In this document: positions 1 to 46,216 of the stretch, piece after piece
Numbering within the stretch: the first letter of the stretch is position 1
Layout: each line of letters starts with the position of its first letter
UHGV virus genome: UHGV-1374897
DNA from: a virus
Direction: 5' to 3' (one strand)
Length of the DNA stretch: 64,000 nt
Translations under genes and position numbers: made by a program
The notes under the pieces: model-generated
Databases searched by the model: none
The model's input: the letters and a program-made list of their open reading frames with translations, nothing else
Told to the model about the DNA's origin: nothing

Positions 1-34
1 GCATGATTTGTTGAGCGAGTGCGATGGGTTTCAT
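1..34 (-). CDS. 5' end (11 codons) of a paralog of the 76..651 gene; continues beyond the window
   Basis: Positions 1-77 are a near-identical direct repeat of 618-694, which covers the start codon and first codons (MKPIALAQQIM) of the 76..651 gene. Confidence 0.3.
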   Translation of the reverse strand, partial: MKPIALAQQIM

Positions 35-75
35 ATCTGTTTTGTTTTTGTAGAGTGATGTGAGGTTTCTAAATG

Positions 76-651
76 TTAAACTCTCAAATTGCATTGGAAG
101 GAACTCTTGTGGAGTGAGAGGATTTCATCCTTAGATAGCGTGCTCATGTTAAGCACCATGTGGTCAGGCGTCATGGACAGAATCTCCGCACCCGGCTCCG
201 TAGGAAATATACAACCCAATTTAACGGAGCGGGCAAGAGATGGACGAGCCTTAAACATAGCATCGTAAAGGGTTTTGCTATACCTAACGGCGTAAAAATT
301 ATGGTAGGAAAATAGGGTGGCATAATCATGGTTTTCTCCGCGCTTCACCTTATGGTAGTTGAGACGAAGGATGCGCACCGTTCTATCCTCATAGGCATTC
401 GGGTCGTAGAGTGTCCTAATCGCAAAGAAGATGCCTGACGTGAATACCTCCCCAATACCAAAGGATTCAATCAGGAATTTGGTCTGTTCAGATTGGAGAA
501 TATTATCCTCCGGGTTCCGGGGAATATAGAACTCTCCCTTGACATGGGCAGGAAGAACAATAGGGCTTCCAAGTTTTCCGGTACGACCATTATTATCCCG
601 TGCCCAAGAATGAAGGAGCATGATTTGTTGAGCGAGTGCGATGGGTTTCAT
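76..651 (-). CDS. hypothetical early protein (191 aa)
   Basis: Long minus-strand ORF in the early block; upstream region carries the conserved ATTAGAACC...ATG leader. Confidence 0.6.
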   Translation of the reverse strand: MKPIALAQQIMLLHSWARDNNGRTGKLGSPIVLPAHVKGEFYIPRNPEDNILQSEQTKFLIESFGIGEVFTSGIFFAIRTLYDPNAYEDRTVRILRLNYHKVKRGENHDYATLFSYHNFYAVRYSKTLYDAMFKARPSLARSVKLGCIFPTEPGAEILSMTPDHMVLNMSTLSKDEILSLHKSSFQCNLRV

Positions 652-689
652 ATCTGTTTTGTTTTTGTAGAGCCATGTGGGGGTTCTAA

Positions 690-1043
690 TTAGAAGATAG
701 GTCGAGTGAATCCCATATCTTCAAGGCAACGGGCGAGGCGATTTGCCTCCAGCTGGTGCCGCTCTAGGCGTCGGCGTATGATGTCAATGCCCCACTCTAC
801 CAATAGCTGGAAGACAAACCAGCCTGTGATGATGACGCACCATGTAAGGTACGATATGAGAAGTTCACCAGTGGCAAGGAGATAACCTAAACAAACCAGT
901 GCGCTTACGAGGGCAACAATGCCCACTACCGAATGCAGGTGCTCCACGAGGCTCCACAGGGTATGAAGCCTGTCGGCTCGCCCGATGTGGTGGAGACATT
1001 GCTTGCGGAGGATGACGACGTTAGATTCTTTTTCGGGTGTCAT
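690..1043 (-). CDS. hypothetical small membrane protein (117 aa, two hydrophobic helices)
   Basis: ORF on the early-block strand; hydrophobic stretches VVGIVALVSALVCLGYLL and WCVIITGWFVFQLL; conserved upstream leader. Confidence 0.55.
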   Translation of the reverse strand: MTPEKESNVVILRKQCLHHIGRADRLHTLWSLVEHLHSVVGIVALVSALVCLGYLLATGELLISYLTWCVIITGWFVFQLLVEWGIDIIRRRLERHQLEANRLARCLEDMGFTRPIF

Positions 1044-1073
1044 ACTATAGAGCTATGTGAGAGTTCTAAAGGT

Positions 1074-1679
1074 TCAACGGAGTACGAGCTTCACGGTTTC
1101 CAGATTCAAATCGTCGTTCCATTTGTTGCTCGTAAACTTCACCATGCAGGGGAGGAAGAAACGTTCTGCCAGCTTGCGAACCTTTATGGAATTGATATTG
1201 TTCATAGATTCCTTATCGGGTGTGAGGAATCGGAAGCGCATATAGGTGAGGCTACCATCAACCATGAAGTCCACCGCCCCCGCTTCCTGCGCAATACGCA
1301 GTCCCACTTCCTGCCAGTTCTGATTCACCACCGCAGTAAAGTGCTTTGCCAGTTCTATGGCATCCCCTACAGTCAGAGCCGCCGTTTCCGCAAGTTTCCA
1401 CACCGTGCCATTCCACTTCAACTTGTGGAGCCGGACAATGCACGCGCCATTGTGTGTGCGTTCCAGTTCGATTGCGTAGGGCCGCATGTACGGCTTAACA
1501 TATGCCGTTCCTTCTCCATTCCATTCGGAAGGCCTGTCTATCCTATGGGATATTACACCTGCCTTAAAAGAAAAGATTGCAGGTTGAAGTTTATTGATTC
1601 GATTTGTGAGCTTAAGCCATTCCGTGCGGGAAAGTTCATCACGTTTCCTGCCTGTAATATCAATGTCAAATGCAGTCAT
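1074..1679 (-). CDS. hypothetical early protein (201 aa)
   Basis: ORF on the early-block strand with the conserved ATTAGAACC upstream motif. Confidence 0.55.
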   Translation of the reverse strand: MTAFDIDITGRKRDELSRTEWLKLTNRINKLQPAIFSFKAGVISHRIDRPSEWNGEGTAYVKPYMRPYAIELERTHNGACIVRLHKLKWNGTVWKLAETAALTVGDAIELAKHFTAVVNQNWQEVGLRIAQEAGAVDFMVDGSLTYMRFRFLTPDKESMNNINSIKVRKLAERFFLPCMVKFTSNKWNDDLNLETVKLVLR

Positions 1680-1928
1680 AATTTTGTAGTGTTCTTTGTT
1701 GGTTCTAATAGGAAGAAATAATTTTTAGTATGTATGATACAATCCTTCAAGGATATGTGCATAGGCTTCAACTTGTTCGGTAGGTACGATATGGAAGCCA
1801 TTGCAACTTGCGAGCCGTTCAATATCCCTCATTTGCCGGGTAGTAGTTTGTGAATATTCTTTGGTTGTAACATACAGTACTTTGCCTCGACGGTCAAGGG
1901 TGGCAACGTGCGTTTGATAGGAGAAAAG

Positions 1929-2054
1929 TCAGTTGCCCTGCCATGACATAGAGCGCAAACGCCATCCGTCTAATCCGGTTCGCAAGGGAGACTTGCCACT
2001 TTCTTTTCTGCCTTCAATGTATTCCTTGCCTAATTTTTCAATGTAGGTTCTCAT
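1929..2054 (-). CDS. possible micro-protein (41 aa, MRTYIEKLGKEY...)
   Basis: Below the 60-aa ORF cutoff, but it is preceded by the same ATTAGAACC...ATG leader as neighbouring early genes; the 1725-1928 stretch holds further short ORFs. Confidence 0.3.
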   Translation of the reverse strand: MRTYIEKLGKEYIEGRKESGKSPLRTGLDGWRLRSMSWQGN

Positions 2055-2122
2055 GGTGTTTTGTTATTTGGTTAGAGTTATTTGAGGGTTCTAATAAATA
2101 GGGTAGCTGGGGCGGGTTTAGG

Positions 2123-2872
2123 TCATGCCCTGTAGGAGGGAAGGGTAGAAACGGTTGTGTGGTTATAGTCGAAGCGAGAGTATTGTACACCAGTCAGGCT
2201 TTCAAGGTCTTGCTTCAATCTCTTCACTTGTTCTTCCACTTTAACGGCTTGTGCAAAATAGGCGCACACGTAGTCGGAATCGCAAAGGCGGGTATTTGAT
2301 TCCTCAATCTCCCGGAGCTTGGTATCAAGGCGAACCATATCATTGAAGATTCCTTCAATGAATTTCTCCATGTCCCTTCCGGTGACAATTCGCTTCTGCT
2401 TTTGCGTCAGCTCATTGACGTCAAACTTAAAGGAAATATTCACGGAATCAAACATGCCGGGGAGGATATGATGAAACACCACTTGCGGCCACGTATAGCG
2501 GCTCCAATTTATGTAAGCGTGGATTTTAATGTCCGCCTCAACACTTTGTGTAATTGCGGTGGCCAGACAGTCTTCCAGCATCCGGTCTACTCGGACGTTA
2601 TAGACCTTACCTGCAAACCGGGGGAGGCGTTCGGCCACTAGTGCCAGCATGCGGTGAGTAATAAGGGCGGCCAGACCGTGAGCGGCATTATCTCGGACGA
2701 CCTGTTTCAGGTTATGCCCCATGTTGCGCACCGAGATGACATAGTCATTCTGATTATTCTCCATGAGGTCATCCCGTGTTTCAGCTACGGCGGCATCGAT
2801 AGCGGCATTTGCCCGTTCAATAAGGGCATCAATGGCGGTGACAGTGGTGGGGATTGTGATTGTAGTATTCAT
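2123..2872 (-). CDS. hypothetical early protein (249 aa)
   Basis: ORF directly downstream of early promoter/hairpin cassette E1. Confidence 0.6.
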   Translation of the reverse strand: MNTTITIPTTVTAIDALIERANAAIDAAVAETRDDLMENNQNDYVISVRNMGHNLKQVVRDNAAHGLAALITHRMLALVAERLPRFAGKVYNVRVDRMLEDCLATAITQSVEADIKIHAYINWSRYTWPQVVFHHILPGMFDSVNISFKFDVNELTQKQKRIVTGRDMEKFIEGIFNDMVRLDTKLREIEESNTRLCDSDYVCAYFAQAVKVEEQVKRLKQDLESLTGVQYSRFDYNHTTVSTLPSYRA

Positions 2873-2914
2873 AGTATTATTCTTTCTATCGGTTTATTGT
2901 TGTTTGGTTTATTG

Positions 2915-3000
2915 TTGCGGGGCTTGTCCCCGTTGGATAGTTTCAGGTTAGCAGATTTTCTTACCTTGTCAAATACTTTTTATATGTATGACAAAAGGCG
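2915..3000 (-). promoter_or_regulatory. early promoter cassette E1: A/T-rich upstream element, -35 TTGACA, 16-bp spacer, -10 TAACCT, then 5' stem-loop CGGGG-cttgt-CCCCG (2918-2932)
   Basis: A conserved sequence (minus-strand reading AAAAAGTATTTGACAAGGTAAGAAAATCTG) recurs at five early intergenic sites; the GC hairpin starts about 6 nt after the predicted transcription start. Confidence 0.5.
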
Positions 3001-3008
3001 TATCCTAT

Positions 3009-3437
3009 TTATTTTGAGAAGAGAACAACGAGGGGTACAGGAATATCCAAAAAGTTTCTATCCGTGTAGAGAGTAAAAGAATCGGAGTTTGTGCCATAAT
3101 ACTGCACGGCTCTTTCCCGGAATACTCTAATAGAGTTGCTTCTCACATACGGTTCGGCTTTCGGTTCGCACGTAGGAACGGTGGTTGTGCAATCGGAAAG
3201 ACGAGCACGGAACCTTTCTGTATTTTCAATCAAGTCCTGCACCTTGTATGCGTTAAACTCTACAAGTTTAATGCTAACGGCATTCTGAATACTGACGTGT
3301 TCATGAATCTCATGCTCGTCCGGGTAGTAGTCATAGGTGCGCACAATGCGGCACTTTTCACCTCGGCTATTAACGGCGTTTGATGAAACGTCTTGCGCTT
3401 CCGTAGTTCCCCATACTTCAATCTCATTTTCTTTCAT
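3009..3437 (-). CDS. hypothetical early protein (142 aa)
   Basis: ORF downstream of cassette E2. Confidence 0.55.
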   Translation of the reverse strand: MKENEIEVWGTTEAQDVSSNAVNSRGEKCRIVRTYDYYPDEHEIHEHVSIQNAVSIKLVEFNAYKVQDLIENTERFRARLSDCTTTVPTCEPKAEPYVRSNSIRVFRERAVQYYGTNSDSFTLYTDRNFLDIPVPLVVLFSK

Positions 3438-3462
3438 AGTATTATTCTTTCTATTGTTTTGT

Positions 3463-3560
3463 TGATATAGTTGCCACCCTTCCGGTGGCTGATGAATGTA
3501 CTTTAGCAGATTTTCTTATCTTGTCAAATACTTTTTGTAGAGCGGCGTAGTTATTCAGCT
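3463..3560 (-). promoter_or_regulatory. early promoter cassette E2 (TTGACA-N16-TAAAGT, then hairpin GCCACC-cttcc-GGTGGC)
   Basis: Same conserved cassette as E1. Confidence 0.5.
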
Positions 3561-3576
3561 TTAACGGGTTCCATAT

Positions 3577-3966
3577 TCATTGAATGATACGCAGATAAGA
3601 TACATGCTGAGAATTAGAATGCCGGGTATCTTCTACCTGTTGGACGTTTTCAATGCCGAAAGGGAACCATGCTATCTTTTCCGCTAGCGATAATCTTTCA
3701 AGGGTTAAATACGGGGATTCATCCACGGATGAAATTATCATAACGTCATAAGCACCTACTCGATAGATAGAAAACGTATCTTTCAGGCGCATGCTTCCCG
3801 GCTTGGCAAACTTGTCCAGTAGTACTTCCGAAACCGCCCACACGGCGGGGGAAAGAGTATACTCTTTTCGGTGCAAGGAATTAAAGCTTTCAATAGTCAG
3901 GTGTACTTTGCCATTACCTTCTACTTTTATTTCCTTTCTGATATGTAATTCTGATATGTCTTTCAT
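3577..3966 (-). CDS. hypothetical early protein (129 aa)
   Basis: ORF on the early-block strand. Confidence 0.55.
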   Translation of the reverse strand: MKDISELHIRKEIKVEGNGKVHLTIESFNSLHRKEYTLSPAVWAVSEVLLDKFAKPGSMRLKDTFSIYRVGAYDVMIISSVDESPYLTLERLSLAEKIAWFPFGIENVQQVEDTRHSNSQHVSYLRIIQ

Positions 3967-3995
3967 GGTCTGTAATTTATGATTGGTTTATTGTT

Positions 3996-4151
3996 AAACC
4001 CCGGAATCCCCGGAACCCGTTGCACCCGATATCCCCCGCATTCCGGGGGCGGGAATTATTCCTTTGTCTTTCTACTTTATCTTTCTATGTGGTTAGAGTT
4101 ATTTGACGGGTTCCGGGGATTCCGGGGTTTAAATGTTCCATGTGGAACAAT
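3996..4151. repeat. Composite inverted-repeat element: perfect 23-bp IR (3996-4018 and 4108-4130, with CCGGAA motifs) flanking an 89-bp spacer, followed by the 14-bp palindrome GTTCCATGTGGAAC (4135-4148)
   Basis: The two arms are exact reverse complements; the palindrome and 21 bp of its context recur identically at 8296-8319. Confidence 0.8.
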
Positions 4152-4181
4152 TTTGATTCCCCGGAACAAGCCGCAAGTGGT

Positions 4182-4715
4182 TTATATTCTTCCAGTTACC
4201 AGCGTTTGGCCGTGCATCGTCCGAACCCAGAAATTAACGATATCACGGGGACGGGGGGATACATTGTGCCCGTTCATATCGGTGAAAGTATGTCCCGTTT
4301 CTACCAAGGCTATCAGATTGCGGATGACACTCCGCAGGGTTTGATTTCCTTTCAGATACACCTTTACCCGGCTACCGTCTGTGAGCTTAAGTTCAAGGTA
4401 GCAGTTAGTCATCCGGCAACCCGGATTTATCCATGATAGGACGGCACCCATAAAGCGAGGCAGGACATAGTATTTTACACAGTCACAGGGCAAGCCAAAG
4501 GCGGGCGTGCTGGTGAAATGTGCTTCCGGCTGGTCGTCCACAGGGCAAACTAGGAAATAATCTTTTTCCCACTCTTCAATGTTTTCAAGGTCTTCATCTC
4601 TCATATCTTCCTTGCCTTCCCCGTATTCAAGGGGATAGACTGCCCATTCTGGAATGTAATGGATAAGGGCATAGTCCGATACTTTAAGCACTTCCGGTTT
4701 AGTTGTAGTCTTCAT
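4182..4715 (-). CDS. hypothetical early protein (177 aa)
   Basis: ORF on the early-block strand. Confidence 0.55.
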   Translation of the reverse strand: MKTTTKPEVLKVSDYALIHYIPEWAVYPLEYGEGKEDMRDEDLENIEEWEKDYFLVCPVDDQPEAHFTSTPAFGLPCDCVKYYVLPRFMGAVLSWINPGCRMTNCYLELKLTDGSRVKVYLKGNQTLRSVIRNLIALVETGHTFTDMNGHNVSPRPRDIVNFWVRTMHGQTLVTGRI

Positions 4716-4769
4716 AATATGGTTGCTTTCTATTGTTTATTATTAGTTTGATTTTATAGAGCGGCGTAG

Positions 4770-5093
4770 TTATTCAATGGGGAGCGGCGTAATTATAGAA
4801 GCTTTAGCTACTGACTGGCAGAACCGTTGTTCCAGATACCGGTTAATTTCCTCCGGGTCGTAGGTACACCAAGCCCCTAACTCATTCTCATTCACCGCCT
4901 GCCACAAGCGCACAATGTCAGAATCATCTAATGTGGGCAGGGCGTCCCACGGGTATATGTTAAGCAGGGCGGCAATAGGGCGTGCATGTGAAGGTGATGT
5001 GGCGAAAAAGATAAGGGACAGAAGGCCGTCACCGTTTTCGTAGAATGCCCATGCGGGGATTTCATTGTCTTTCAGTTCAATTTGAGTGTTCAT
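4770..5093 (-). CDS. hypothetical early protein (107 aa); paralog of 7143..7505
   Basis: Clear protein similarity to 7143..7505 (MNTQIELKDNEIPAWAFYENGDGLLSL vs MNTQIKLQDGETLTWAVHENGAGILSL; shared HARP.AA...PWD). Confidence 0.6.
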   Translation of the reverse strand: MNTQIELKDNEIPAWAFYENGDGLLSLIFFATSPSHARPIAALLNIYPWDALPTLDDSDIVRLWQAVNENELGAWCTYDPEEINRYLEQRFCQSVAKASIITPLPIE

Positions 5094-5130
5094 GTTATAG
5101 TGTTGTTTAGGTTTTCAGTTGTATGATAAA

Positions 5131-5457
5131 TTAGAGCGGCCAAGAAATAGTTTCCGGGGAATCAGAAAGGGCTAGTACAAAGTCAGTTTCAAACTGTCTT
5201 ATCACAATATATCCGAAGTCCGGTGTATATCCTTTAAGCTTTCCCAGAATGCACCAAGCATCCATTCTGATTTTAATCTCGCTACCCCTTGGCAGGGCGG
5301 CAAGTAGCTTCCTTGCTTTTTCGATTCCCTTGCATACCCTATCCGTAACGGTAAGCATGAGGGCGGTATCTTCCTTCCAGTTATGGGGCAAGATTGTCAT
5401 CTTGTCAGGGTCTGATACGTCCATTTCGTCATAGTCTAATTTTAGTATTTCTTTCAT
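5131..5457 (-). CDS. hypothetical early protein (108 aa)
   Basis: ORF downstream of cassette E3. Confidence 0.55.
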   Translation of the reverse strand: MKEILKLDYDEMDVSDPDKMTILPHNWKEDTALMLTVTDRVCKGIEKARKLLAALPRGSEIKIRMDAWCILGKLKGYTPDFGYIVIRQFETDFVLALSDSPETISWPL

Positions 5458-5487
5458 AAGTTATTTCTTTCTAATGGTTTGAGGTTA

Positions 5488-5580
5488 TGCGGGGGCTTGT
5501 CCCGCTTGCTGATTTTAGTTTATCGGATTTTATTATCTTGTCAAATACTTTTTTAGGGCGGTGTAATTTTTCAGGGGGAA
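5488..5580 (-). promoter_or_regulatory. early promoter cassette E3 (TTGACA-N16-TAAACT, then hairpin around 5491-5510)
   Basis: Conserved cassette. Confidence 0.5.
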
Positions 5581-5581
5581 C

Positions 5582-5884
5582 TTAACGGTTATACACAATC
5601 CTTGCGCCCGCTTCCTCCAGTGCGAGGCATAGCGGGTCGGAAATAAAGGCACGGCTAACTACCATTTCGCCGGGGTGGTAGCTTTCAATGCTTATTGCCC
5701 GCATTTCCCCCGATTCCCGGCACCTGACAAGTAGGCTTGCCTTGCTTCCGGTTGCTTCCGCTAGTGCGGCGATTAGTTCCAGCTCTTCATCATGTCTTGC
5801 GGATAGTTGGAATAGATAGGGGCGTGTTTCCCGGATATGAGCGGCTAAAATATTGATTGCCGTTTTCTTTTCGTCTTCATTCAT
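5582..5884 (-). CDS. hypothetical early protein (100 aa)
   Basis: ORF on the early-block strand. Confidence 0.5.
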   Translation of the reverse strand: MNEDEKKTAINILAAHIRETRPYLFQLSARHDEELELIAALAEATGSKASLLVRCRESGEMRAISIESYHPGEMVVSRAFISDPLCLALEEAGARIVYNR

Positions 5885-5961
5885 GGTCTTATTTCTTTCT
5901 ATTGTTGTTTTTTGATTTTTGATTTTATAGGGCGGTGTAACTTTTCAAGGGAGGTTGGATT

Positions 5962-6390
5962 TTAGTAAATCTCTTCCAGCTCTTCCCATTCACCCGGCCG
6001 GGTGAAGAAGGTTTTAAGTTCCGCATATTCATGGCACGCCCCCGTGTACTTGCTATAGGAAGTCATGTCATAATCCCCCGTTTCCTCGTCATATCGGGGC
6101 AATCCCATTTCTATACAAAAGTCTTGATATGAGCCACAATCGGATTTACACAGACAGGCAAGGACGTCATAGGCGGTTGGCGTCTTGTGCTGGTCGGCGT
6201 GAGACTGGTAGAACGTGATGAAGATTGCTTGCCTTTCGCCCTTTTGAGGACTTTCCCGGTGTAAGACAATTTCCCATGTACTATGAGGCTCTTTGTCCCA
6301 CAAGGGAACATATCTTCCCTTATATTTCCCGGTGATTCTGATTCCACAATTTCTTAGGAATCTTTTTGCGTGTTCTGTATAGATGCTCAT
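5962..6390 (-). CDS. hypothetical early protein (142 aa), Cys/His-rich
   Basis: ORF on the early-block strand; an overlapping 78-aa ORF in another frame is probably spurious. Confidence 0.5.
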   Translation of the reverse strand: MSIYTEHAKRFLRNCGIRITGKYKGRYVPLWDKEPHSTWEIVLHRESPQKGERQAIFITFYQSHADQHKTPTAYDVLACLCKSDCGSYQDFCIEMGLPRYDEETGDYDMTSYSKYTGACHEYAELKTFFTRPGEWEELEEIY

Positions 6391-6459
6391 TGTCTTATTT
6401 CTTTCTATTGTTTAATTGTTAATATGTTAATATGTTAGGGCGGTGTAACTTTTCAGAAA

Positions 6460-7012
6460 TTAAACCCGGCTTACCAGTTTGAGGACAAGGTTTAACCCGT
6501 CATCATAGGTGCGCACCATGTGCCGGCCCGCCCCATAGGTCTCACATTGTGCGGGGGTTAAATAGTAGCGGTGAACGAAAAACGCAGGACTAGGCCGGCC
6601 GTAGCGGTTAAAATCCCATGAGGCAGGGGCCTGTGAATCGTCCCATTGCAACCATGCAACGGGAACATATCTCTGTGAAGTATAAAGGTCTACGAGCTTA
6701 TCAGTAGACAAGGCGAAAAGCCACTTGCCCCCGTGAGAGTGGATTGAATCGAAAACGTCATCCAGCGGGACTACCGCACCGGGGTTTTTGACTAGGGTGG
6801 CAATCTCGCCAGTAGGTAGGATTGTCCACACCGCCGTGACACGCCCGCCGTCACTATCGCCCCCTACGTAGGCAAACCGTTTCGCCCCCTCGTAAAAGTC
6901 CGGGGAATGTACGTCTACCGCCCCCCCGGATTCCGGCCGGGTGCAAGTCCCGGAAATGATTTGCGAGGCCCGTGAATGTGGTTGCGGGTACGTTAATAAT
7001 TTGATTCTTCAT
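6460..7012 (-). pseudogene. early gene interrupted by a +1 frameshift at a G7 (plus-strand C7) tract at 6921-6927: ATG at 7010-7012 gives MKNQIINVPATTFTGLANHFRDLHPAGIRGG..., which leaves the frame of the 123-aa ORF 6460..6831
   Basis: The ATG at 7012 sits at the conserved distance from cassette E4 with the typical A-rich leader. The 6460..6831 ORF has no in-frame ATG (the track start is GTG) and stays open upstream in-frame as far as the homopolymer. Removing one G fuses the two frames. Confidence 0.5.
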
Positions 7013-7055
7013 TGTTTTATTTTCCTTTCTTCTTTTAGTTTTCGTTTTGTTGTCC

Positions 7056-7145
7056 GGGGGTTGTCCCCCGTTGATGATTTCAATTTATCAGATTTTCTTA
7101 CCTTGTCAAATGTTTTTTGTTTTTGTATGACACAATCGTAAGTTA
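7056..7145 (-). promoter_or_regulatory. early promoter cassette E4 (TTGACA-N16-TAAATT, then hairpin CGGGGG-ttgt-CCCCCG)
   Basis: Conserved cassette. Confidence 0.5.
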
Positions 7146-7505
7146 TTCATCCGCAATGTTGAAGGCCTTGCGGGCGGCGTATCCCATGCGGTCTGTCTCC
7201 ATGATTGTCACTAGTTCCCCGGTGGGATAGATAACGGTGTTATGTGCAACCGGACGGCCCGCCTCGTGCCTCAAAAAGCGGTGGATATCCGCAATGTCAT
7301 AGTTAACCCCGTCCCACATGTGCACCATGTCCAAATCCTCAAGGGCGGGGGCAACGTCCCAGGGGAAAATGTCAAACACGGCCGCAACAGGGCGGGCATG
7401 TGCGATTGTTTCTGCGTACAGGACGAGGGACAAAATGCCCGCGCCGTTTTCGTGCACCGCCCATGTGAGAGTTTCACCGTCTTGTAATTTGATTTGAGTG
7501 TTCAT
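7143..7505 (-). CDS. hypothetical early protein (120 aa); paralog of 4770..5093
   Basis: Protein similarity to 4770..5093; downstream of cassette E5. Confidence 0.6.
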   Translation of the reverse strand: MNTQIKLQDGETLTWAVHENGAGILSLVLYAETIAHARPVAAVFDIFPWDVAPALEDLDMVHMWDGVNYDIADIHRFLRHEAGRPVAHNTVIYPTGELVTIMETDRMGYAARKAFNIADE

Positions 7506-7544
7506 GATTTAGTTTCCTTTCTTGTTAGTGTTTCTATTGTTTCC

Positions 7545-7625
7545 GGGGTTGCCCCCGTTGATGATTTAACTTTAACCTATTTTATCTTGTTGTCAAATGT
7601 TTTTTGTTTTTGTATGACACAATTA
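7545..7625 (-). promoter_or_regulatory. early promoter cassette E5 (TTGACA-N16-TAAAGT, then hairpin)
   Basis: Conserved cassette. Confidence 0.5.
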
Positions 7626-7673
7626 TAACACGCAGATAATGAGCGAGTTACAACGCGCCGGAAAGAAAACCAC

Positions 7674-7701
7674 TTGACGCCCCCCGCCAGTATGTTAAAT
7701 T
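7674..7701 (+). promoter_or_regulatory. sigma70-like promoter TTGACG-N16-TAAATT for the rightward gene 7768..8151
   Basis: Good spacing and a TAnnnT -10. Confidence 0.45.
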
Positions 7702-7767
7702 GCAATCATCCACCGGGGAACAACCCGGAAATGAGAACACTAATTAAATAGATAGGAGATTAAAATC

Positions 7768-8151
7768 ATGAACAATCAAACTATAAGCAATGACGCCCCC
7801 GCACCAAGAGACCGGGAAAATAAGATGAAGCTCGTGAGAGCCGCCGCCGCTAATTTAAGAGACACAATCACCTACGCCCGCCTCGCTATTGTGCCGGATA
7901 AGCGGCTCGGAGACGTAGACTATCTTGAGGCGGTGGAAGCTCTCTATTGCGGCCCCCTTGGCACGGATGACGCAGACCCTACAGAGATTTTGCTCTCTGT
8001 CACTTACGGTGCCGGATTGCCCGCCGATAAAGCGGATGATGTTGAGTACGAGCTACGCTTCATTGTTGATTCTCTACCATTCACCCCGGATGACTTTTTC
8101 CGGGGAACAGGAGACGGCACAAAGGAATACGGTGCGGTCTTTACTCTCTAA
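7768..8151 (+). CDS. acidic hypothetical protein (127 aa, about 23 Asp/Glu); the first rightward gene
   Basis: ORF with a strong Shine-Dalgarno (TAGGAGAT, 8 nt before the ATG), unlike the SD-less early genes. The net acidic composition suggests a possible DNA-mimic or anti-restriction role, but this is unproven. Confidence 0.55.
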   Translation: MNNQTISNDAPAPRDRENKMKLVRAAAANLRDTITYARLAIVPDKRLGDVDYLEAVEALYCGPLGTDDADPTEILLSVTYGAGLPADKADDVEYELRFIVDSLPFTPDDFFRGTGDGTKEYGAVFTL

Positions 8152-8221
8152 AAACCAACGGGTTACGATTGTGTCATACAACTTCCCCGGTATCCATTGC
8201 ACCCCCGGATTCCCCGGCACA

Positions 8222-8245
8222 CTATATATAGAGAGAGAGAGAGAC
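8222..8245. repeat. (TA)4(AG)8 microsatellite
   Basis: tatatatagagagagagagagac. Confidence 0.9.
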
Positions 8246-8284
8246 GGCACCCCCGGTTCCTTTGGATTCTTTTGGATTTAAATT

Positions 8285-8368
8285 GTAAATGTAAATGTAA
8301 ATGTTCCATGTGGAACAATCCGGCAATCGGGCAATCGGGCAATCCGGCAATCGGGATTCCGGATTCCG
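8285..8368. repeat. Repeat cluster: (TGTAAA)3, palindrome GTTCCATGTGGAAC (8303-8316), (GGCAATCGG)4 tandem, (GGATTCC)2
   Basis: Directly visible tandem repeats; the palindrome is identical to 4135-4148. Confidence 0.85.
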
Positions 8369-8759
8369 GGGTTGTGGTGGGATAGCGGGTTCAACGGGTT
8401 CCGTTGTTGCTATCGGGTTCCGGGGGTGCAACAATATGACGTACAAGATATAGGGGTTTTACATTTTTGTAAAACTATTAGTCCAATACTTGACTATTAA
8501 TGAGGGAAGGATACCTATACCCCTATGGGTATGGCTTGTATGTTGTTGATACTTAACCAGTACCAGACCGGACAATTTAAGGGCAAGACCGTGCCCCTTT
8601 TCTGCCTTCTCCAGCGCCTTCAATTTCAATCCCTATCGGAATAGTAGGAAAACCAAAACCCCGATTTTGCATTATATGTATTATGCGAAGTATGGAAGCG
8701 GATTCCTTTGAGCATCAATGAGTTACGCATATCAGGGTGCCAGTGGGAAACAGACTTTG

Positions 8760-9040
8760 CATCCCCGGATTCCATGGAGACCTACAGACCACTTCATACC
8801 ATAAGTTTCTTATCATCAGACGGTTGCAACAGATTCCGGGGATTCAATGGGTTGCATGCCGTACCGTTCCCGTGACGAGGGCGGGAGCAGTCCATGGCAG
8901 GCGGCATACCGTTTCCGTTGCAATACGGGGACCTATCATACCGATTCCGCTACAGGTGGGGGGATAGGCAGGCCGCTGAAACATACTGATTCCGGTGCAA
9001 TCAGGGCAAAAAGGTTCCGTGATGCACCGATTCCGTGGGT
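8760..9040. repeat. Iteron-like array: at least 6 degenerate copies of (C/T)GATTCCG(N)TGCAAT-like sites spaced about 40-60 bp apart
   Basis: gattccgggg (8832), gtttccgttgcaatacgg (8910), ccgattccgctacagg (8942), ctgattccggtgcaatcagg (8988), ccgattccgtgggtatagg (9028). Confidence 0.5.
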
Positions 9041-9177
9041 ATAGGGGGAAACTGGATGCCAAGGAAATCCAAACACCACCACGGTTTCCCAGGCTCCGGG
9101 GTTGCACGCGGCCCATAGTAAATAGTTGGGTCAAATTTTTTCCGTGGGGTACGGGGGAGGGGGTACCCTTCTGGGCA

Positions 9178-9303
9178 TGTCAAGCAAAATCGACACGCGG
9201 CCGTTCCACGGGCGGGATATACTTCTGGTCTGTTTCAGCCTCATCTGGTCTGCACCTTATCTCCGACTTGTCAAGCAAAATCGACACGCGGCCGTTCCAC
9301 GGG
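9178..9303. repeat. Perfect 35-bp direct repeat TGTCAAGCAAAATCGACACGCGGCCGTTCCACGGG (9178-9212 and 9269-9303, period 91 bp)
   Basis: Exact duplicate. The overlapping plus-strand ORFs 8995..9390 and 9126..9320 merely translate the repeat (SKIDTRPFHG twice) and are probably not genes. Confidence 0.85.
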
Positions 9304-10228
9304 GGGACGTATCGACCTAGAAGGCGGGCATACTCTTCGGGCAAATTTACTAGAGTGTGGCGGGGTATAGGTAGCGAGATGGTACATTAGTCATGAAACA
9401 GGAGATAGGGCACTACCATCGACCAAATTTGCGCACGGCGGGCATAATGCGAGGGAGCGGCTCTCACGGATTTGGCGGTAAAGAAAAAGCCCGCAGGTAG
9501 CTTGACGAGACTACCCACGGGCGTAACTATGGAAAATGCCTGTAGAAAGGAGAGTGTTTGGTCCGCTCCTGTGGCGAGCAAGTTCCTTGCTTGGGATAGC
9601 CAGAAGCATTGAGCTTAGCTGGTTCGGTTGCCGTTCGGAGCGAACAGGTGCAACATATCACATCAGGGGAGAAAGTCAAGAGGAAATCAGCGTGATGGAC
9701 GCGTTTACGAATTTAATCCAGTGTGGCGAGGTAGAAGGAGGGGATGGGGTCCGGGTGGATAGTTGTAGCGGAGGGATGGTTGCGGCGCGTTCTAGGGTAG
9801 GACCCTCGATTAAATTCAGGGGATTTGGGGATTGTCTGTCATGTGCAACCCGTTTGGCCAATATACAAAGTTCTTGACATTTGTTTAGGGTGTGCTATCC
9901 TACGCCAGTTCGTAAGCATTGCAGAACGGCAAGAACCACGGCGTTTAATAGGTTCTGCCACCAAGACAATGCACCAATCCCAAGGCGACGGACTACATTT
10001 GTTTGTAGGTGTTGATGGAACCCCGGAGGCAGGTTTATCCTGTTTCCGGGGTTTTCTTTTACCCAATAGCCTCAAAATCAAGGTAAGCGATTGAGAATTA
10101 AAATCATAGTAGGAAGACATTAAGGTTAAGGAGCTTGCTCTCCTATAACTGACCTTGAAGGCATTACCAATGTTTAACACAGGTTCGGCTCTTCATAAGT
10201 CGTTGAGAATCAGTAAAACCCCCTTCGG

Positions 10229-10714
10229 CTAACAGAGTTTAACAGAGGCCTAACATTGGCTCTGTGATAGTTAAGTGCTTTAGATTGAACCGCTTCTGAA
10301 ATCCTAACACTTAACATTGATACCATTGAATATTATATACGTATATAGGGAACCCTATACCCCTTTTCTTATAAAAAAATATTAAAAATAAATATGTATT
10401 ATGTTATGTTATTTTAGAAAAAAGGACGCTACTACCGTTTCACTATCAATCACTTATGACCTAACAATAACTAATTGACACCTCTGTTAGCCCCGGAACC
10501 CACGGAACCCAGAATCCACGGAATAACAGAAGCAAGTTCCTCATAATCAATGGACTTCTCAAATCCTAACAGAGGTGTCAAAAACTTATCAATCAGCCGA
10601 AAACTCTGTTAGGGTCTGTGTTAAAACGAGCAACCTCAATAGGTTACAACTACCAAAGAATTGGAACAGAGGGCACCTTTGTCCCAATCCTAACACAATA
10701 ACACAATAACAGAC
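10229..10714. promoter_or_regulatory. Cluster of CTAACAGAG sites, including a 16-bp IR TTGACACCTCTGTTAG (10475-10490) / CTAACAGAGGTGTCAA (10566-10581), plus CACGGAAC repeats (10494-10525), upstream of the first replication-module gene
   Basis: Motif copies at 10229, 10241, 10482, 10566, 10604 and 10688. Confidence 0.45.
10323..10432. promoter_or_regulatory. AT-rich tract (candidate DNA-unwinding element)
   Basis: ttataaaaaaatattaaaaataaatatgtattatgttatgttattttagaaaaaag, in an otherwise roughly 50% GC genome. Confidence 0.4.
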
Positions 10715-10718
10715 CATC

Positions 10719-11594
10719 ATGACACAGTTTTTGAATTTTCACTTGACAGCCCGCGTCCTGTCTGCTACCGTGCCGTCGATGAATACATCAACACCACAAA
10801 ACACTAGTCGGACCGTCGAGGACCATGTGAACCAGTTTGTGCTGGAGTACATGCTCTATCTGCGGAGTTTCATGGATGAATATCCCATCGCAGGGGTATC
10901 TCCCCGCAACAGTTCATGTTGCGACGCCATCTACCTCGAAAATGATTCCCTCCCAATATATATACAGGGACCGGACAGTCGCCCGCTATCGTCTACGCCA
11001 TTGGTGGCTTTGCTTCAATATTTGGCAGAGCGGCCCTTCGTCCGGTTTACGCTTCCGACATTCTACCAGCTCCTGACCACAATATATGGTTCCCCGGTAA
11101 CCGAGACCCCATTCAACCGATTGCTCTGCGCATCCACGGTAGCCCTCGATATCGCGGATTCCGTGGGTTCCGAGGGTGCCATGTTCACGCTCGCGCCACG
11201 GGCTATGGACTTTGTACGGAACCTTCCCAAGAGCAAAGATACGGAGACCATCAAACTGATAGAAGAGAACTTCCATATCCCATGCCCCGTAGCCCAAGGT
11301 CCTGCGTCCAATTCCCACTTCATCTATTGGGAGGTGATGCCACAACTGACCACCGACACCGCGAGGCGATACCTGAAAGTGCTTCACTTCGCACAAGAAG
11401 GGAGACGTAGTCCCGTAGGTATTTTCGCCCTCCATCGTAATGAGGTCTATTCCCTTTCCAGCCTCATGTCCACCTTGCGCGAGATGAACGAGAGGCAACT
11501 TATTCAGTGGCCCAAAGAAGGCGAGAAGGAAAGCGCGGAGGCCCGTATAGAAGAATTTGAACCCGTCTTCGCAACTATTGAACCCAAGAAGTAA
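10719..11594 (+). CDS. hypothetical protein (291 aa)
   Basis: First plus-strand ORF after the non-coding region; no recognisable motifs. Confidence 0.55.
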   Translation: MTQFLNFHLTARVLSATVPSMNTSTPQNTSRTVEDHVNQFVLEYMLYLRSFMDEYPIAGVSPRNSSCCDAIYLENDSLPIYIQGPDSRPLSSTPLVALLQYLAERPFVRFTLPTFYQLLTTIYGSPVTETPFNRLLCASTVALDIADSVGSEGAMFTLAPRAMDFVRNLPKSKDTETIKLIEENFHIPCPVAQGPASNSHFIYWEVMPQLTTDTARRYLKVLHFAQEGRRSPVGIFALHRNEVYSLSSLMSTLREMNERQLIQWPKEGEKESAEARIEEFEPVFATIEPKK

Positions 11595-11599
11595 ACGCC

Positions 11600-14470
11600 G
11601 TGTCTATACCGGAAACAAAACTGACCGCCGTAGGCCTAACCAACGGACAACTCACCTATGATAAGGATAAATTCCCCAATGCCGGGGGATGCAACCATCC
11701 GAATCAAGTGAACCTTGCGGACGTGGAGAGCTTTTTCTCCGCGCCCGCCGGGGCTAAAATTCAGCCCCAGCTACTGCGTTGGAGGTTCTTCTCAACCATG
11801 TACGACATGAAGGAAGGGAGGGAGCCGCGAGTTTCTCTCCCCTCCCTCTTCACCCGTACCTATAAGAAGTGGGAAGACCAGGGGTGGCTACCTCTGGTGA
11901 AGCGGGCACTCCCTGCCTTCGTCCCCTCCGTCAAGTTCCTCGGTGCGCCCAAAGAGTTGGACGGCATGTACTTCTCCAATAAGAAGCAAGTCATGACCGA
12001 TTTCTATTCTTGGGAACATACCGGAATATTTGGGATAGATATTGACCGTGGCCATGATGGGAATACGGATGATGCGGATGCTCTCTTCTCCACTGCCCAA
12101 TCCATTCTTCCCACTATTCCCGGATTCCTCTTCGCATATACCAGCCCCAGCGGCGGGATTAAGGCGTTGTTCCGTATCTCCGCATCCTATACTCAAAAGC
12201 TCAACAACCCCGGAGCATCCACGGATTCCACGGATAAAACGGCTACCGAGGTTGCGGAGGAACTGCTGGACAAGCGTCTCCTTCTCCATAGTGCCATCTA
12301 CCACTATATCGCGGAGACCGTGGAATCCCGGACGGGACTATTCACGGACCCGCGATGCGATGACCCTGCACGTCTCCAATACATCTATTGGGGCCAGTAC
12401 ATCGCGCCGTTAGGGGATGAGGCTCCCTACTTTACCTTACCCTCTGACACCGAGGAACTGATTGCCAAGTATGGTAAGAAGAAAGCACCGAGGACCCGCT
12501 CCTGCAACCGTGAACTGCGCGAAGGCGAAGTGTTGCCGCAGGTGTTCCGCGACTTCGCTAACTGGTTGGAAAATAGAGGACACGAGCCGGAGGCGACCGC
12601 GGTACGTGAGATGCTTAGGACCAGACCGGATGGTAATAACCGTCTCTACAACTACTGCCCCTGTTGTAAGGAAGCATGTACCAATGCTCGCCAGAATACG
12701 GACCTCATGCTGGAAATCAACTTGGACTTCCCTCTTCAATCGTTCTTCTTCTGTCTTCACGGCTCCTGTCAGGACCGGAAGAAGGTGAAGCTCCCGATGC
12801 AGAAGTTGTGGAAGATATATACCACGGACCTCGAAGCCAGAGAGAACTACGAAAGCGAATGCGATGACAAGAACCAGTTGGAAGTCTATCCGTGGGCCAG
12901 TTCCCTTCCTCTGATGGAATGCGCACAACGTGGTCTTGACGTTAATAACCGAGGGACTAAAGGACTGCCTGAACGTAGTGAAATTGACTACAACGGATTG
13001 GCATACCTCCATGTGAAGAAGGATGGAACTCCGCGGATTACGATTGACAACCTCCGCATCATGTTGCAAGGCCTTGGCTACCTTCCCGTGCGCAACTTGT
13101 TGCGTGATTCCAATGAGTTGCTCGACCTCAATACAGGTAAGTTCTATAACACGGACAAGGACACGCTAGCCACACTCACCGCATGGTGGGAGAGGCTTAC
13201 GGATGGAGCACACACTCCGCTCAAGTATTTCTCCGACGCGTTCTATGCGCTCTGCCCTCGTGCCTCCTATCACCCGCTTGCCACTCTCGTTTGTTGTAAC
13301 GAATGGGACGGGCAGGACAGGTTGTCCGAGTACTTGAGCCTTCTTCCCATGAATCAGGAGCACCCGGTTCCCCAAGCCCCCGAAGGCATGGAGCCATTTA
13401 CTCCCGACACATGGAGAGATGCAGTTCTCACTACGTGGCTCGTCACCGTATGGCGACGGCTCATCCTCCATATCACCGGACGAGATTCCGAGATTCCGCA
13501 GAACTACATGCCCATCTTTGTCGGACCTCCCGCTACGGGTAAGGACAAGTGGGCAGACAACCTCTTCGGAAATATTAAGGGCTTAATGACAGACGTGCAG
13601 GACATGTCCTCCCAAGGTGTTGACCTCTCCATGCTTCTCTCCCAGTTGGTGGTGCTCAAGTGGTCCGAAGTGGATGACATCCTACAGAACCGCAAAATGA
13701 GTTCCCGCATTAAGAAGCTTATCACTTCCAACGCTTCTACGGACCGAAGGAAGTATGCGGAGAACCTGTCAGACTTCCAGCACATCGCCAGCTTCATTGG
13801 CTCTACCAACGATGACCAGCCGCTCATTGACCCCACAGGGAACCGTCGATTCATCCTCCTATATACGGGCTACCCGGAGACGCAGGAACGAGCCTTCGAT
13901 GCTACGTGGGAACGAGTGGACCGTATGATGGCTATTGACAAGGTACAGCTTTGGGCGCAGATTAAATACATCTCGGACCATGCGGGTCCCGGTGAATTTA
14001 CATGGAGAAAGCTTACCGACGTGTCGGAAGACTTCAACAAGGAATACGGTGTTGACCTTGGAAGTGAAGAATACCTCGCCAATATGGTTCGTCCGGTCGA
14101 TTACAAGTGTGACAAGACGAAGGATGGTTCTGACATTGCTAGGGCCTTCTATGAGCAAGTATCTACACCCAAGGCTCTTCTCCGGTACATTAAGGCGCAA
14201 CAACAGGATAGGGCCTTCCTCGACATCAAGGAACCCACGGCATCCGAGACTAAATCGTTTACGAACGCCCTCGGAAGCGTTTACGCTAACTGCAACGTGA
14301 ATGTCAAGTTCACGGATTCAACGCAGATTGTGCGTAAGAACACCTCCTTCCGTCGCATGACCTACTTAATGGTTGAGGACTGGTTGAGGGTTTTGGATGC
14401 GGAATCTAAGGAACGATGGTACGCAAGATTCCCTGAATGGAAGGAAAGAGACTTACATGTAGAACTGTAA
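11600..14470 (+). CDS. DNA primase-polymerase/helicase fusion (N-terminal AEP primase, Cys-rich zinc module, C-terminal SF3/D5-like helicase), GTG start
   Basis: AEP motif I IFGIDIDRGHDG and an SGG motif II; Cys cluster CPCCKEAC...CLHGSC; Walker A VGPPATGKDKW, Walker B LVVLKWSEVDD and motif C STND of SF3 helicases. Confidence 0.75.
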   Translation: MSIPETKLTAVGLTNGQLTYDKDKFPNAGGCNHPNQVNLADVESFFSAPAGAKIQPQLLRWRFFSTMYDMKEGREPRVSLPSLFTRTYKKWEDQGWLPLVKRALPAFVPSVKFLGAPKELDGMYFSNKKQVMTDFYSWEHTGIFGIDIDRGHDGNTDDADALFSTAQSILPTIPGFLFAYTSPSGGIKALFRISASYTQKLNNPGASTDSTDKTATEVAEELLDKRLLLHSAIYHYIAETVESRTGLFTDPRCDDPARLQYIYWGQYIAPLGDEAPYFTLPSDTEELIAKYGKKKAPRTRSCNRELREGEVLPQVFRDFANWLENRGHEPEATAVREMLRTRPDGNNRLYNYCPCCKEACTNARQNTDLMLEINLDFPLQSFFFCLHGSCQDRKKVKLPMQKLWKIYTTDLEARENYESECDDKNQLEVYPWASSLPLMECAQRGLDVNNRGTKGLPERSEIDYNGLAYLHVKKDGTPRITIDNLRIMLQGLGYLPVRNLLRDSNELLDLNTGKFYNTDKDTLATLTAWWERLTDGAHTPLKYFSDAFYALCPRASYHPLATLVCCNEWDGQDRLSEYLSLLPMNQEHPVPQAPEGMEPFTPDTWRDAVLTTWLVTVWRRLILHITGRDSEIPQNYMPIFVGPPATGKDKWADNLFGNIKGLMTDVQDMSSQGVDLSMLLSQLVVLKWSEVDDILQNRKMSSRIKKLITSNASTDRRKYAENLSDFQHIASFIGSTNDDQPLIDPTGNRRFILLYTGYPETQERAFDATWERVDRMMAIDKVQLWAQIKYISDHAGPGEFTWRKLTDVSEDFNKEYGVDLGSEEYLANMVRPVDYKCDKTKDGSDIARAFYEQVSTPKALLRYIKAQQQDRAFLDIKEPTASETKSFTNALGSVYANCNVNVKFTDSTQIVRKNTSFRRMTYLMVEDWLRVLDAESKERWYARFPEWKERDLHVEL

Positions 14471-14514: not shown

Positions 14515-14542
14515 TTGACAAAAATCTAATCTTTGATACATT
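14515..14542 (+). promoter_or_regulatory. sigma70-like promoter TTGACA-N16-TACATT, followed by a 5'-UTR stem-loop (GGGATT...AATCCC, 14555-14580)
   Basis: Consensus -35 and a TAnnnT -10; the same TGATACATT -10 context as the promoter at 20479. Confidence 0.5.
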
Positions 14543-42950: not shown

Positions 42951-42977
42951 CGTTGTGTCATACCAATTAAAAATTTC

Positions 42978-45048: not shown

Positions 45049-45288
45049 ATGAACGACAAAGTAGCTATTTTAGAAGACAAAGGATTTGGATTCTTCCGAG
45101 TAACTCACTGTGGAAGTGTCATTGCAGATTTTCTTTACTGCACTGGCTCTGGTGAACAAGGATATATGACACGAGATTCCGCAAAGAAACTGGCAACGAA
45201 GATTGCCCGCTACGTAGTTAGCAGAGGGACAGTTTGTACCATCGAGGGAGTATCACTTAACCAAATCTATTTCAACACCGATGACTGA
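45049..45288 (+). CDS. paralog-array member 1 (79 aa)
   Basis: Shares the FxxYC...G(F/Y)(F/M)T(K/R)(D/E)xAKKLAxKIA motif with the next six ORFs. Confidence 0.6.
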   Translation: MNDKVAILEDKGFGFFRVTHCGSVIADFLYCTGSGEQGYMTRDSAKKLATKIARYVVSRGTVCTIEGVSLNQIYFNTDD

Positions 45289-45517
45289 CACTCTAAATAT
45301 TACCACCGTAGATGACCCCGATATCGGGTTTTTCTGGGTCCTGCTTGAAAACTGTTGCGTTGCCACCTTTTACTATTGCGTGAAAGATGATAGTGGCTTC
45401 TTCACCAAGGAGCAAGCTAAGAAACTGGCCGACAAGCTCTCCCGCAAAATTGAGAAGAGCATGATTATCGAAACCGAAAAGGGAATCAAATTGGAAAGGA
45501 ACAACATCAATGAATAA
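45281..45517 (+). CDS. paralog-array member 2 (78 aa)
   Basis: GFFTKEQAKKLADKLSRKIEKSMIIETEKGIKLERNN; an 8-nt ATGACTGA overlap with member 1. Confidence 0.65.
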   Translation: MTDTLNITTVDDPDIGFFWVLLENCCVATFYYCVKDDSGFFTKEQAKKLADKLSRKIEKSMIIETEKGIKLERNNINE

Positions 45518-46213: not shown

Positions 46214-46216
46214 ATC

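Follow-up and report, generated by a model that had tools for sequence, protein, structure and literature searches.

A promoter-like cassette with a GC hairpin is used six times before small early genes of the gut phage UHGV-1374897

What control unit does the virus genome UHGV-1374897 place, again and again, before the small genes at its left end? The question is raised by positions 2,915-7,625, the range first examined within a 64,000-nucleotide (nt) stretch of this genome (the window), where intergenic regions carry nearly the same bases, each followed by a GC-rich hairpin. The genes concerned are small minus-strand open reading frames (ORFs) of positions 1-7700, here called early, a timing that we infer. 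The same control unit of about 100 bases, a near-consensus bacterial promoter together with a short GC hairpin, is used six times before small orphan genes. Its best overall explanation is likely to be a host promoter of the sigma-70 type whose transcript opens with the hairpin, the repeated cassettes also serving as portable homology. The anatomy of the unit, its pattern of conservation, the keeping of hairpin structure over hairpin sequence and a clustering of breakpoints are observed directly.

The core 20-mer TTTGACAAGRTAAGAAAATC, with at most one mismatch, occurs four times and on the minus strand only (2954, 3509, 5526 and 7091), where shuffles expect 0.01. A fifth minus-strand copy has a diverged spacer, and repeat search and alignment place these five copies (c1 to c5) in a single 70-nt repeat family spanning 2872-7622. 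The sixth copy (c6) is on the plus strand and outside the range first examined, reads TTGACG-N16-TAAATT, would drive the ORF at 7768 and forms a divergent pair with c5. The copies are as follows.

2872..2996, minus strand: c1; TTTTGTCATACAT at 2996-2984, -35 at 2972-2967, TGcTAACCT with the -10 at 2950-2945, predicted +1 at 2938, hairpin CGGGG-ACAAG-CCCCG at 2932-2918, ATG at 2872.
3437..3558, minus strand: c2; motif CTGAATAACTACGCCGCTCTA at 3558-3538, -35 at 3527-3522, TGcTAAAGT with the -10 at 3505-3500, predicted +1 at 3493, hairpin GCCACC-GGAAG-GGTGGC at 3489-3473 (arms unrelated to any other copy's), ATG at 3437.
5457..5574, minus strand: c3; motif CTGAAAAATTACACCGCCCTA at 5574-5554, -35 at 5544-5539, -10 TAAACT at 5522-5517, predicted +1 at 5510, hairpin GCGGG-ACAAGCC-CCCGC at 5505-5489, ATG at 5457.
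7012..7135, minus strand: c4; TTGTGTCATACAA at 7135-7123, -35 at 7109-7104, TGaTAAATT with the -10 at 7087-7082, predicted +1 at 7075, hairpin CGGGGG-ACAA-CCCCCG at 7070-7055, ATG at 7012.
7505..7622, minus strand: c5; TTGTGTCATACAA at 7622-7610, A-tract, -35 TTGACA at 7596-7591, -10 TAAAGT at 7574-7569, predicted +1 (A) at 7562, hairpin CGGGG-GCAA-CCCCG at 7557-7544, ATG at 7505.
7662..7770, plus strand: c6; -35 TTGACG at 7674-7679, GC-rich non-conserved spacer, -10 TAAATT at 7696-7701, predicted +1 at 7708, hairpin CCGGG-GAACAA-CCCGG at 7713-7728, Shine-Dalgarno sequence TAGGAGAT, ATG at 7768.

All six share one layout, namely an A-tract, TTGACA (TTGACG in c6), a spacer of 16 nt without exception and (T/C/G)GnTAA(A/C)nT containing the -10, and in each the seventh nt after the -10 is an A preceded by C or T, the expected start. 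Relative to this predicted start the cassette hairpins begin at +5 to +7 and end at +19 to +22, with stems of 5-6 base pairs (bp) and, for c1 to c5, RNA fold energies of -9.2 to -12.7 kcal/mol and z-scores of -2.5 to -3.4. An A/C-rich leader lies 3' of the hairpin, and the predicted 5' untranslated regions (5'UTRs) come to 53-66 nt. The original prediction of near-identical cassettes in at least five early intergenic regions, and of a highly conserved control element reused over the early block, is borne out by the five minus-strand copies plus c6, all within 5 kb, as is the claim that each carries a GC hairpin, at about +6 to +20 of the predicted transcript. The stem sizes then proposed fit; the loops of 3-5 nt do not, since they span 4-7 nt in the window and, among relatives, 3-9 nt. 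The upstream GTGTCATAC that was to be part of each copy precedes only three of the five minus-strand copies (c4, c5 and, as TTGTCATAC, c1), YTACRCCGCYCTA standing in its place in c2 and c3. The leader before the ATG is A-rich as described, but its motif AATAGAAAGAA is a separate module rather than one bound to the cassette, and c4 and c5 have AAAGGAA, which is weakly Shine-Dalgarno-like rather than lacking such a signal.

Is the conserved part then a promoter, and for which polymerase? Relatives were found by an exact search with the 20-mer, giving 30 stretches of IMG/VR gut contigs of up to 70 kb, and a primase alignment added more. From related contigs 92 unique cassettes were picked by an A-rich upstream plus TTGAC[AG]-N16-TAAnnT, ignoring the hairpin. 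Beyond this retrieval pattern an alignment of 44 cassette sequences from relatives keeps the upstream A-tract (invariant) as well as a G at -14 and the start CATC (at least 90%). Both c6 and a subfamily of relatives (L055/L061/L066) have unrelated spacers, the subfamily with -35, -10 and start kept, and a sigma-70-type promoter is expected to show just such a free spacer between kept hexamers and start. L046, a distant relative, carries TTGACA-N16-TACTAT and after it a hairpin and A/C-rich leader of its own. Judged from this pattern of bases the cassettes are very probably sigma-70-type promoters, and the strong host RNA polymerase promoter with a 5' hairpin that had been put forward is the best-supported reading, with the invariant -35, -10 and CA start and the kept hairpin position in its favour; the two alternatives offered beside it, an N4-like and a Bacteroidetes-type promoter, are unsupported.

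As such the cassette would be a strong promoter for the primary (sigma-70-family) RNA polymerase holoenzyme of the host, with an A-tract resembling an UP element, a consensus -35 TTGACA, the 16-nt spacer and an extended -10 YGnTAAAnT. Initiation would be at the A of the conserved CA, 7 nt after the -10, and the transcript would start as pppA-N4-5-[GC stem-loop]-A/C-rich leader. Its first ~22 nt would encode the stem-loop, with about 5 nt unpaired at the 5' end, and the unstructured A/C-rich leader would carry the ribosome-loading region.

The same bases can be read as a Bacteroidota-type promoter, recognised by the Bacteroidota primary sigma factor, which is said to have been described by Bayley et al. 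in 2000 as TTTG at -33 and TAnnTTTG at -7, 19-21 nt apart. The five minus-strand copies do read TTTGACA with TAAAnTG 19 nt later, most genes are without Shine-Dalgarno sequences and have A-rich leaders, and the primase has a weak BT4734-like match at its N-terminus. However the -7 element lacks its TTTG (TAAACTGA, TAAAGTAC, TAACCTGA), and at c6 and other plus-strand sites the sequence is cTTGAC or cTTGACC, the extra T not being conserved. Across the window TAnnTTTG has 26 matches and is neither enriched nor biased to a strand (12 plus, 14 minus), and the composite motif is found once in the 64 kb and not at a cassette. With the tail fibre and endolysin pointing instead to Akkermansia, where canonical -35/-10 promoters and frequent leaderless mRNAs occur, a Bacteroidota-type promoter is very unlikely and this part of the original prediction falls.

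The host evidence is as follows. The C-terminal half of a tail-fibre-like ORF of 718 amino acids (aa) at 34013-36169 matches, among 50,697 phage records, only three phages of Akkermansia muciniphila (44-46% identity, E ~1e-72), one of the three matches being annotated as a tail fibre. The best match of the endolysin (47556-48314) is the endolysin of Akkermansia phage Chantilly (E = 3e-37), ahead by 30 orders of magnitude; the Akkermansia phages matched are Moulinsart, DTMo-2021a and Chantilly. From these protein sequences Akkermansia would be the host, a call made with moderate confidence. Cappable-seq of A. muciniphila gave a -35 element, a TATAAT box, a YR start and ~10% leaderless transcription start sites (PMC4782308). 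The phage fits this picture because it has sense-oriented -35/-10 sites, leaderless geometry and few Shine-Dalgarno sequences. The sites are TTGAC-N16-18-TAnnnT (N16-17 in the high-scoring ones), sense-oriented in plus-strand intergenic regions across the genome and often after AAATTTC; a loose sigma-70 scan over whole segments was not above chance, and only such high-scoring intergenic sense-oriented sites are informative.

14515, plus strand: intergenic sigma-70-like site.
20479, plus strand: intergenic sigma-70-like site.
21574, plus strand: intergenic sigma-70-like site, leaderless geometry.
24622, plus strand: intergenic sigma-70-like site, leaderless geometry.
36663, plus strand: intergenic sigma-70-like site, leaderless geometry.
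42978, plus strand: intergenic sigma-70-like site, leaderless geometry.
48328, plus strand: intergenic sigma-70-like site.
53990, plus strand: intergenic sigma-70-like site.

In the leaderless geometry 6-8 nt separate the -10 from the ATG. Behind the site at 14515 there is a long palindrome, GGCCTCG...CGGGGCC, that overlaps the expected start and has a compensatory change in the relative L042. A host search among genome contigs gave no match for TerL peptides, and the 20-mer gave 8 single matches in unrelated taxa, near the ~4 expected by chance on our own arithmetic.

What, next, of the hairpin? A strong one is present in 80 of the 92 cassettes, against 10.3 in shuffles, and in 76 of the 80 it starts 10-12 nt past the -10. 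Among the hairpins 41 are distinct, and they have 20 different 5' arms (CGGGG, GCGGGAG, GCCACC, TCCCCGCCC, CCGCC, GCCGC, CCGGG, GGGGA and ACCCGCT are among them) and 32 loop sequences of 3-9 nt. The loop is inverted in some cassettes (ACAAG to CTTGT), and G-C and C-G are both seen at every stem position, with A-T too at all but one. Arms so varied at a fixed position imply that it is pairing and position, and not sequence, that have been maintained. A MAFFT alignment of 44 cassettes scattered the hairpin arms over its columns, and a hairpin finder with shuffle controls was used instead of a covariance model.

This bears directly on the N4-like proposal, in which the hairpin, extruded from supercoiled DNA, would itself be the promoter for a single-subunit RNA polymerase delivered by the virion, perhaps a 3218-aa ORF at 54070-63726, and the likeness to -35/-10 would be incidental. 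N4 is likewise a ~70-kb phage with a giant ORF, its virion RNA polymerase (vRNAP) being similar in size to the 3218-aa ORF, and a GC hairpin with a 5-7-bp stem adjoins every early gene here, as one does in each early transcription unit of N4. In N4 promoters, however, it is the hairpin bases that are conserved, in a GC-rich heptamer centred at -11 (-11A/G, -10G, -8G and +1C; PMC4496689), upstream of +1 and with no -35/-10. Here the hairpin sequence is free and downstream of the start, the arms being unrelated and the loops 3-9 nt and invertible, and the invariant part is the upstream TTGAC-N16-TAAnnT at a fixed 11 nt from the stem; some cassettes, moreover, have no hairpin. Among 47 ORFs tested no RNA polymerase or sigma domain was detected. 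For the 3218-aa ORF, which is rich in Ala and Lys, searches of Pfam, PHROG and PDB gave no sequence similarity at E <= 1, and structures of N4 vRNAP and crAss gp66 are expected to be in the PDB set searched; the ORF has an HExxH motif near residue 1506 (VLHEVIHL) and is without DxDGD and T7-like motifs. Possibly it is an internal virion protein or one for ejection. A hairpin promoter of the N4 type is thus scarcely credible, and the suggestion of one is not sustained.

An intrinsic (Rho-independent) terminator was also considered for the hairpin and rejected for want of a U-run after the stem. No T-run lies 3' of any of the six stems, the bases right after them being CAACAA, CATAAC or GACAAC, and a terminator scan at sequence level flags none on either strand. 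In Rfam there was no gathering-score match in the window, and at E <= 1 in positions 1-11000 two chance-level matches, both elsewhere.

Tentatively, and at slightly less than even chances, the hairpin may be an RNA stabiliser or insulator near the 5' end. As an obstacle there the stem-loop would hinder decay that depends on the 5' end, whether by RNase E-type scanning or by an RNase J-type 5' exonuclease, and would give all early mRNAs the same 5' context whatever ORF follows. Stabilisation of mRNA by 5'-terminal stem-loops is established (PMC3997798), and obstacles shield downstream sites from RNase E scanning that depends on the 5' end (PMC3997798; PMC11194081).

Alternatively the hairpin could be a specific RNA target of a phage protein, such as a nut/boxB-like antitermination site or the site of a regulator of translation or of an early-to-middle switch. 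Each early transcript would have it at a fixed place just past the start, the early genes have no evident terminators between them, and many loops are purine-rich and GNRA-like (GCAA, GACAA, GGAAG, ACAAG), which is reminiscent of boxB pentaloops. Lambdoid nut sites, which consist of a boxA and a boxB hairpin, are also small promoter-proximal RNA hairpins of early transcripts, and their loop of 4-5 nt is often rich in purines. But the 32 loop sequences of 3-9 nt also include CTTGT, TTATT and CTCAAT, and with 20 different 5' arms the variety is such that sequence-specific recognition is unlikely. Unlike the lambdoid sites the cassettes have no conserved loop, no boxA-like conserved element besides the start-site CATC and no N-like protein, and their hairpin, at +6, is much nearer the start. 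Hairpin-less cassettes exist, and no early protein matches a known RNA-binding family. Such a target is accordingly improbable.

Do the cassettes also bear on how the early genes themselves are arranged? Near-identical cassettes and early genes are found in contigs whose primase-helicase is only 30-31% identical to that of the window (L005, L011, L017, L023, L028, L030 and others), and a shared early block in spite of this implies different histories of early block and replication module (mosaicism). When positions 1-8200 of the window are set against all relatives, 149 of 240 synteny end-points (62%) and 28 of 60 clusters of them (47%) fall inside cassettes or two other intergenic motif families, regulatory motifs that cover 13.6% of those positions. 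Seven relatives lack precisely the gene at 5131-5457, the gap running from the c3 hairpin (5476) to 5114, and the gene at 3577-3966 and the c2-to-c1 module occur in relatives at other places bounded by cassettes or motifs. The ORFs downstream of cassettes are orphans with no Pfam or PHROG function. These comparisons make a cassette-mediated shuffling of genes rather probable, in which the ~100 nt that are near-identical between copies would let cassettes act as portable homology, orphan early genes being inserted, deleted and moved there.

Some breakpoints lie in or at the edge of hairpins (2919, 3459-3464, 5476, 7047-7058), and in L011 a hairpin arm is fused into coding sequence at a microhomology. 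Might the inverted repeat then act mainly at the level of DNA, with no role in the mRNA, as an attenuator or terminator like that of the PeSL cassettes of T4-type phages, or as a recombination hotspot or target? PeSL stem-loops terminate transcription and are proposed recombination targets (PMC2839356), and loop inversion is typical of palindrome dynamics, as near-equality of fold energies on the two strands would also suit. A terminator behind its own promoter would, however, abort its own transcript, and no T-run follows the stem, whichever strand is read, nor did the scan mark any of the six hairpins as terminator-like. Recombination alone leaves the fixed 11-nt distance from the -10 unexplained, because homology anywhere in the cassette would suffice. 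A purely DNA-level role is unlikely, and both it and an RNA-protein target are less likely than the 5' obstacle or insulator. As improbable as the protein target is a dedicated phage system for which the hairpin would be the handle, either a structure-specific factor that shuts off or processes all early mRNAs, or hairpin-targeted recombination making integron-like mobile promoter-gene cassettes (mini-circles); were the latter true, it would spread orphan genes among Akkermansia phages with replication modules only 30% identical.

Several points weigh against a sigma-70-type promoter with a 5' hairpin that doubles as portable homology. The pattern used to retrieve relatives' cassettes contained the -35 and the -10, and so their invariance is partly by construction, the evidence independent of that pattern being the spacer divergence, c6 and L046. 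The hairpin is wholly missing from the cassettes of a few relatives (L021, L030, L017), and because these exist it is accessory, not essential and not the promoter. With about 5 nt unpaired by the predicted start, the 5' end itself would be protected only in part, because RppH-type enzymes need no more than 2-3 unpaired nt (PMC3997798). The folds are nearly equally stable in sense and antisense (-9.96 against -9.61 kcal/mol, a difference that is small and from non-independent values), and so the folds do not single out action at the RNA level on this strand. The breakpoint counts are not phylogenetically independent, and the host assignment is based on two proteins. Finally, all that goes beyond the DNA sequence is inference, including the transcription start, the early timing, the dependence on host holoenzyme and the function of the hairpin.

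Around the cassettes other short modules recur. The leader motif AATAGAAAGAA has 9 matches against 1.03 expected, six of the nine upstream of early ATGs, and is an independent translation-initiation or leader module, because it is present in the leaders of c1-c3 and also before three promoter-less early genes, each time ending 8-12 nt before the ATG.

4734-4724, minus strand: promoter-less AATAGAAAGAA.
5903-5893, minus strand: promoter-less AATAGAAAGAA.
6409-6399, minus strand: promoter-less AATAGAAAGAA.

The upstream TTGTGTCATACAA was rejected as a required part of the cassette, since it is in only three of the six copies and has two further plus-strand occurrences, at 8169 and, ahead of a different promoter-like site, at 42953; it probably is an element of its own, either a linker or a site to which a protein binds. 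Directly after stop codons stands a second family of intergenic motifs, YTGAAWAnYTACRCCGCYCTAnAAAA, of which two members adjoin c2 and c3 and three are alone.

3530-3558, minus strand: second motif family.
4749-4777, minus strand: second motif family.
5546-5574, minus strand: second motif family.
5920-5948, minus strand: second motif family.
6428-6456, minus strand: second motif family.

Several synteny breakpoints coincide with this family, which could be a weaker TTGAAA-N15-TAAAAT promoter or a factor-dependent (possibly middle) signal. A third family, TTAGAACCnnCACATnnCTCTACAAAA, lies immediately upstream of the leftmost minus-strand genes and has CYCTAnAAAA in common with the second.

46-80, minus strand: third motif family.
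663-697, minus strand: third motif family.
1043-1077, minus strand: third motif family.
1682-1716, minus strand: third motif family.
2068-2102, minus strand: third motif family.

A distant relative (L043, ~3320-4400) has a similar motif, TAGAACCAAAGACAACnCTACAA, and the family may be another temporal class of promoter or a processing signal.

Among the early genes, that read from c4 (6460-7012, minus strand) appears as two ORFs, of 52 aa and 123 aa, because of seven consecutive G near 6925-6931; the relative L063 has six G there and, by manual reading, a single restored ORF of ~184 aa, and either natural frameshift variation or a sequencing error in the homopolymer accounts for the split. The minus-strand ORFs 7143-7505 and 4770-5093, one with its own cassette and the other without, begin alike (MNTQI(K/E)L(Q/K)D...) and from this likeness appear to be paralogous early genes. 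The early block also contains a perfect 27-nt inverted repeat, TTAAACCCCGGAATCCCCGGAACCCGT, at 3994-4020 and 4106-4132, flanking 85 nt; it is made of CCGGGGA/GGAACCC words like those of the non-coding region at 8200-10500, and breakpoints cluster alongside it at 3962-3969.

The wider genome, of ~70 kb, has the small minus-strand ORFs at 1-7700, then a repeat-rich non-coding region of ~2.5 kb and, on the plus strand after it, a VapE-type primase-helicase, PolA, a helicase, a PD-(D/E)XK nuclease (the gene content includes a DUF2800 nuclease), TerL, structural genes, the endolysin and the 3218-aa ORF. Among the 50,697 phage records no megablast match was found for positions 1-12000 and no tblastn match for TerL, and PolA and the helicase match phage records only at <=26% identity. 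The ORF-poor region (8200-10700) holds a (GA)n run, TGTAAA three times, five 8-nt CAATCSGG repeats at 8316-8355, many ATTCCGGGG/GGAACCC words, 38-nt direct repeats at 9178-9215 and 9269-9306 and an AT-rich part at 10320-10420. A large structured RNA is possible at ~9350-10070, ending in a terminator-like hairpin at 10018-10068; Rfam has no match in this region, and many relatives' contigs break within it. A search for genome termini and direct terminal repeats, which might have favoured entry of the early genes first, found only a 55-nt assembly overlap (L021/L042), which points to a circular assembly and is uninformative on termini. Elsewhere, at 45049-46462, six consecutive small ORFs of 78-82 aa look like a tandem array of paralogous genes, three of them (starts 45510, 45739 and 45965) sharing an upstream …AAAGGAACAA…ATG.

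How, finally, does the cassette compare with what is known? It is a well-known sort of phage control element and not a new transcription system, and does not overturn current understanding; what is new is the phage lineage and the host phylum. For an uncultivated ~70-kb human-gut phage lineage, most likely on Akkermansia, it provides a map of early transcription units that can be tested; the three Akkermansia phage relatives in the collection searched are of only 31-37 kb. The cassettes are candidate strong and compact promoter/5'UTR parts for Akkermansia genetics, and 41 natural hairpin variants at one position form a series with which to test 5'-proximal structure against mRNA fate in a non-model phylum.

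Among 5'-terminal stem-loops that stabilise mRNA is that of the T7 gene 10 leader. Others are the 5'UTR stem-loops of E. coli ompA and papA (Emory, Bouvet and Belasco 1992, as listed in PMC3997798). Like these three the cassettes would place a short stable hairpin at the start of a highly expressed transcript, followed by an unstructured leader, with structure counting over sequence; unlike them they have ~5 nt predicted to be unpaired 5' of the stem, which is beyond the classical tolerance.

By likeness of layout the closest known analogue is the PeSL (promoter-early stem-loop) mobile regulatory cassettes, as an analogue and not as a family member by descent. PeSLs have strong sigma-70-like promoters with an AT-rich upstream and GGGG...CCCC stem-loops before orphan genes, and mediate modular shuffling (PMC2839356; PMC4122927). 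In common with those of the T4-type phages RB49 and phi1, the unit described here is a repeat of ~100 nt with a sigma-70-like promoter, an AT-rich upstream and a GC-rich stem-loop, sited before orphan genes in a plastic early region and with breakpoints at the cassettes. In contrast it belongs to a ~70-kb PolA/VapE-primase phage with no T4-like genes and no sequence relationship to PeSLs. Its stem-loop lies 10-13 nt after the -10 and would be transcribed, where that of PeSLs takes five variable positions at or upstream of the start, and it is without terminator features, its leaders mostly lacking Shine-Dalgarno sequences. The PeSL idea, of promoter cassettes as linkers by which orphan genes are shuffled, would thereby be extended past the T4-type phages.

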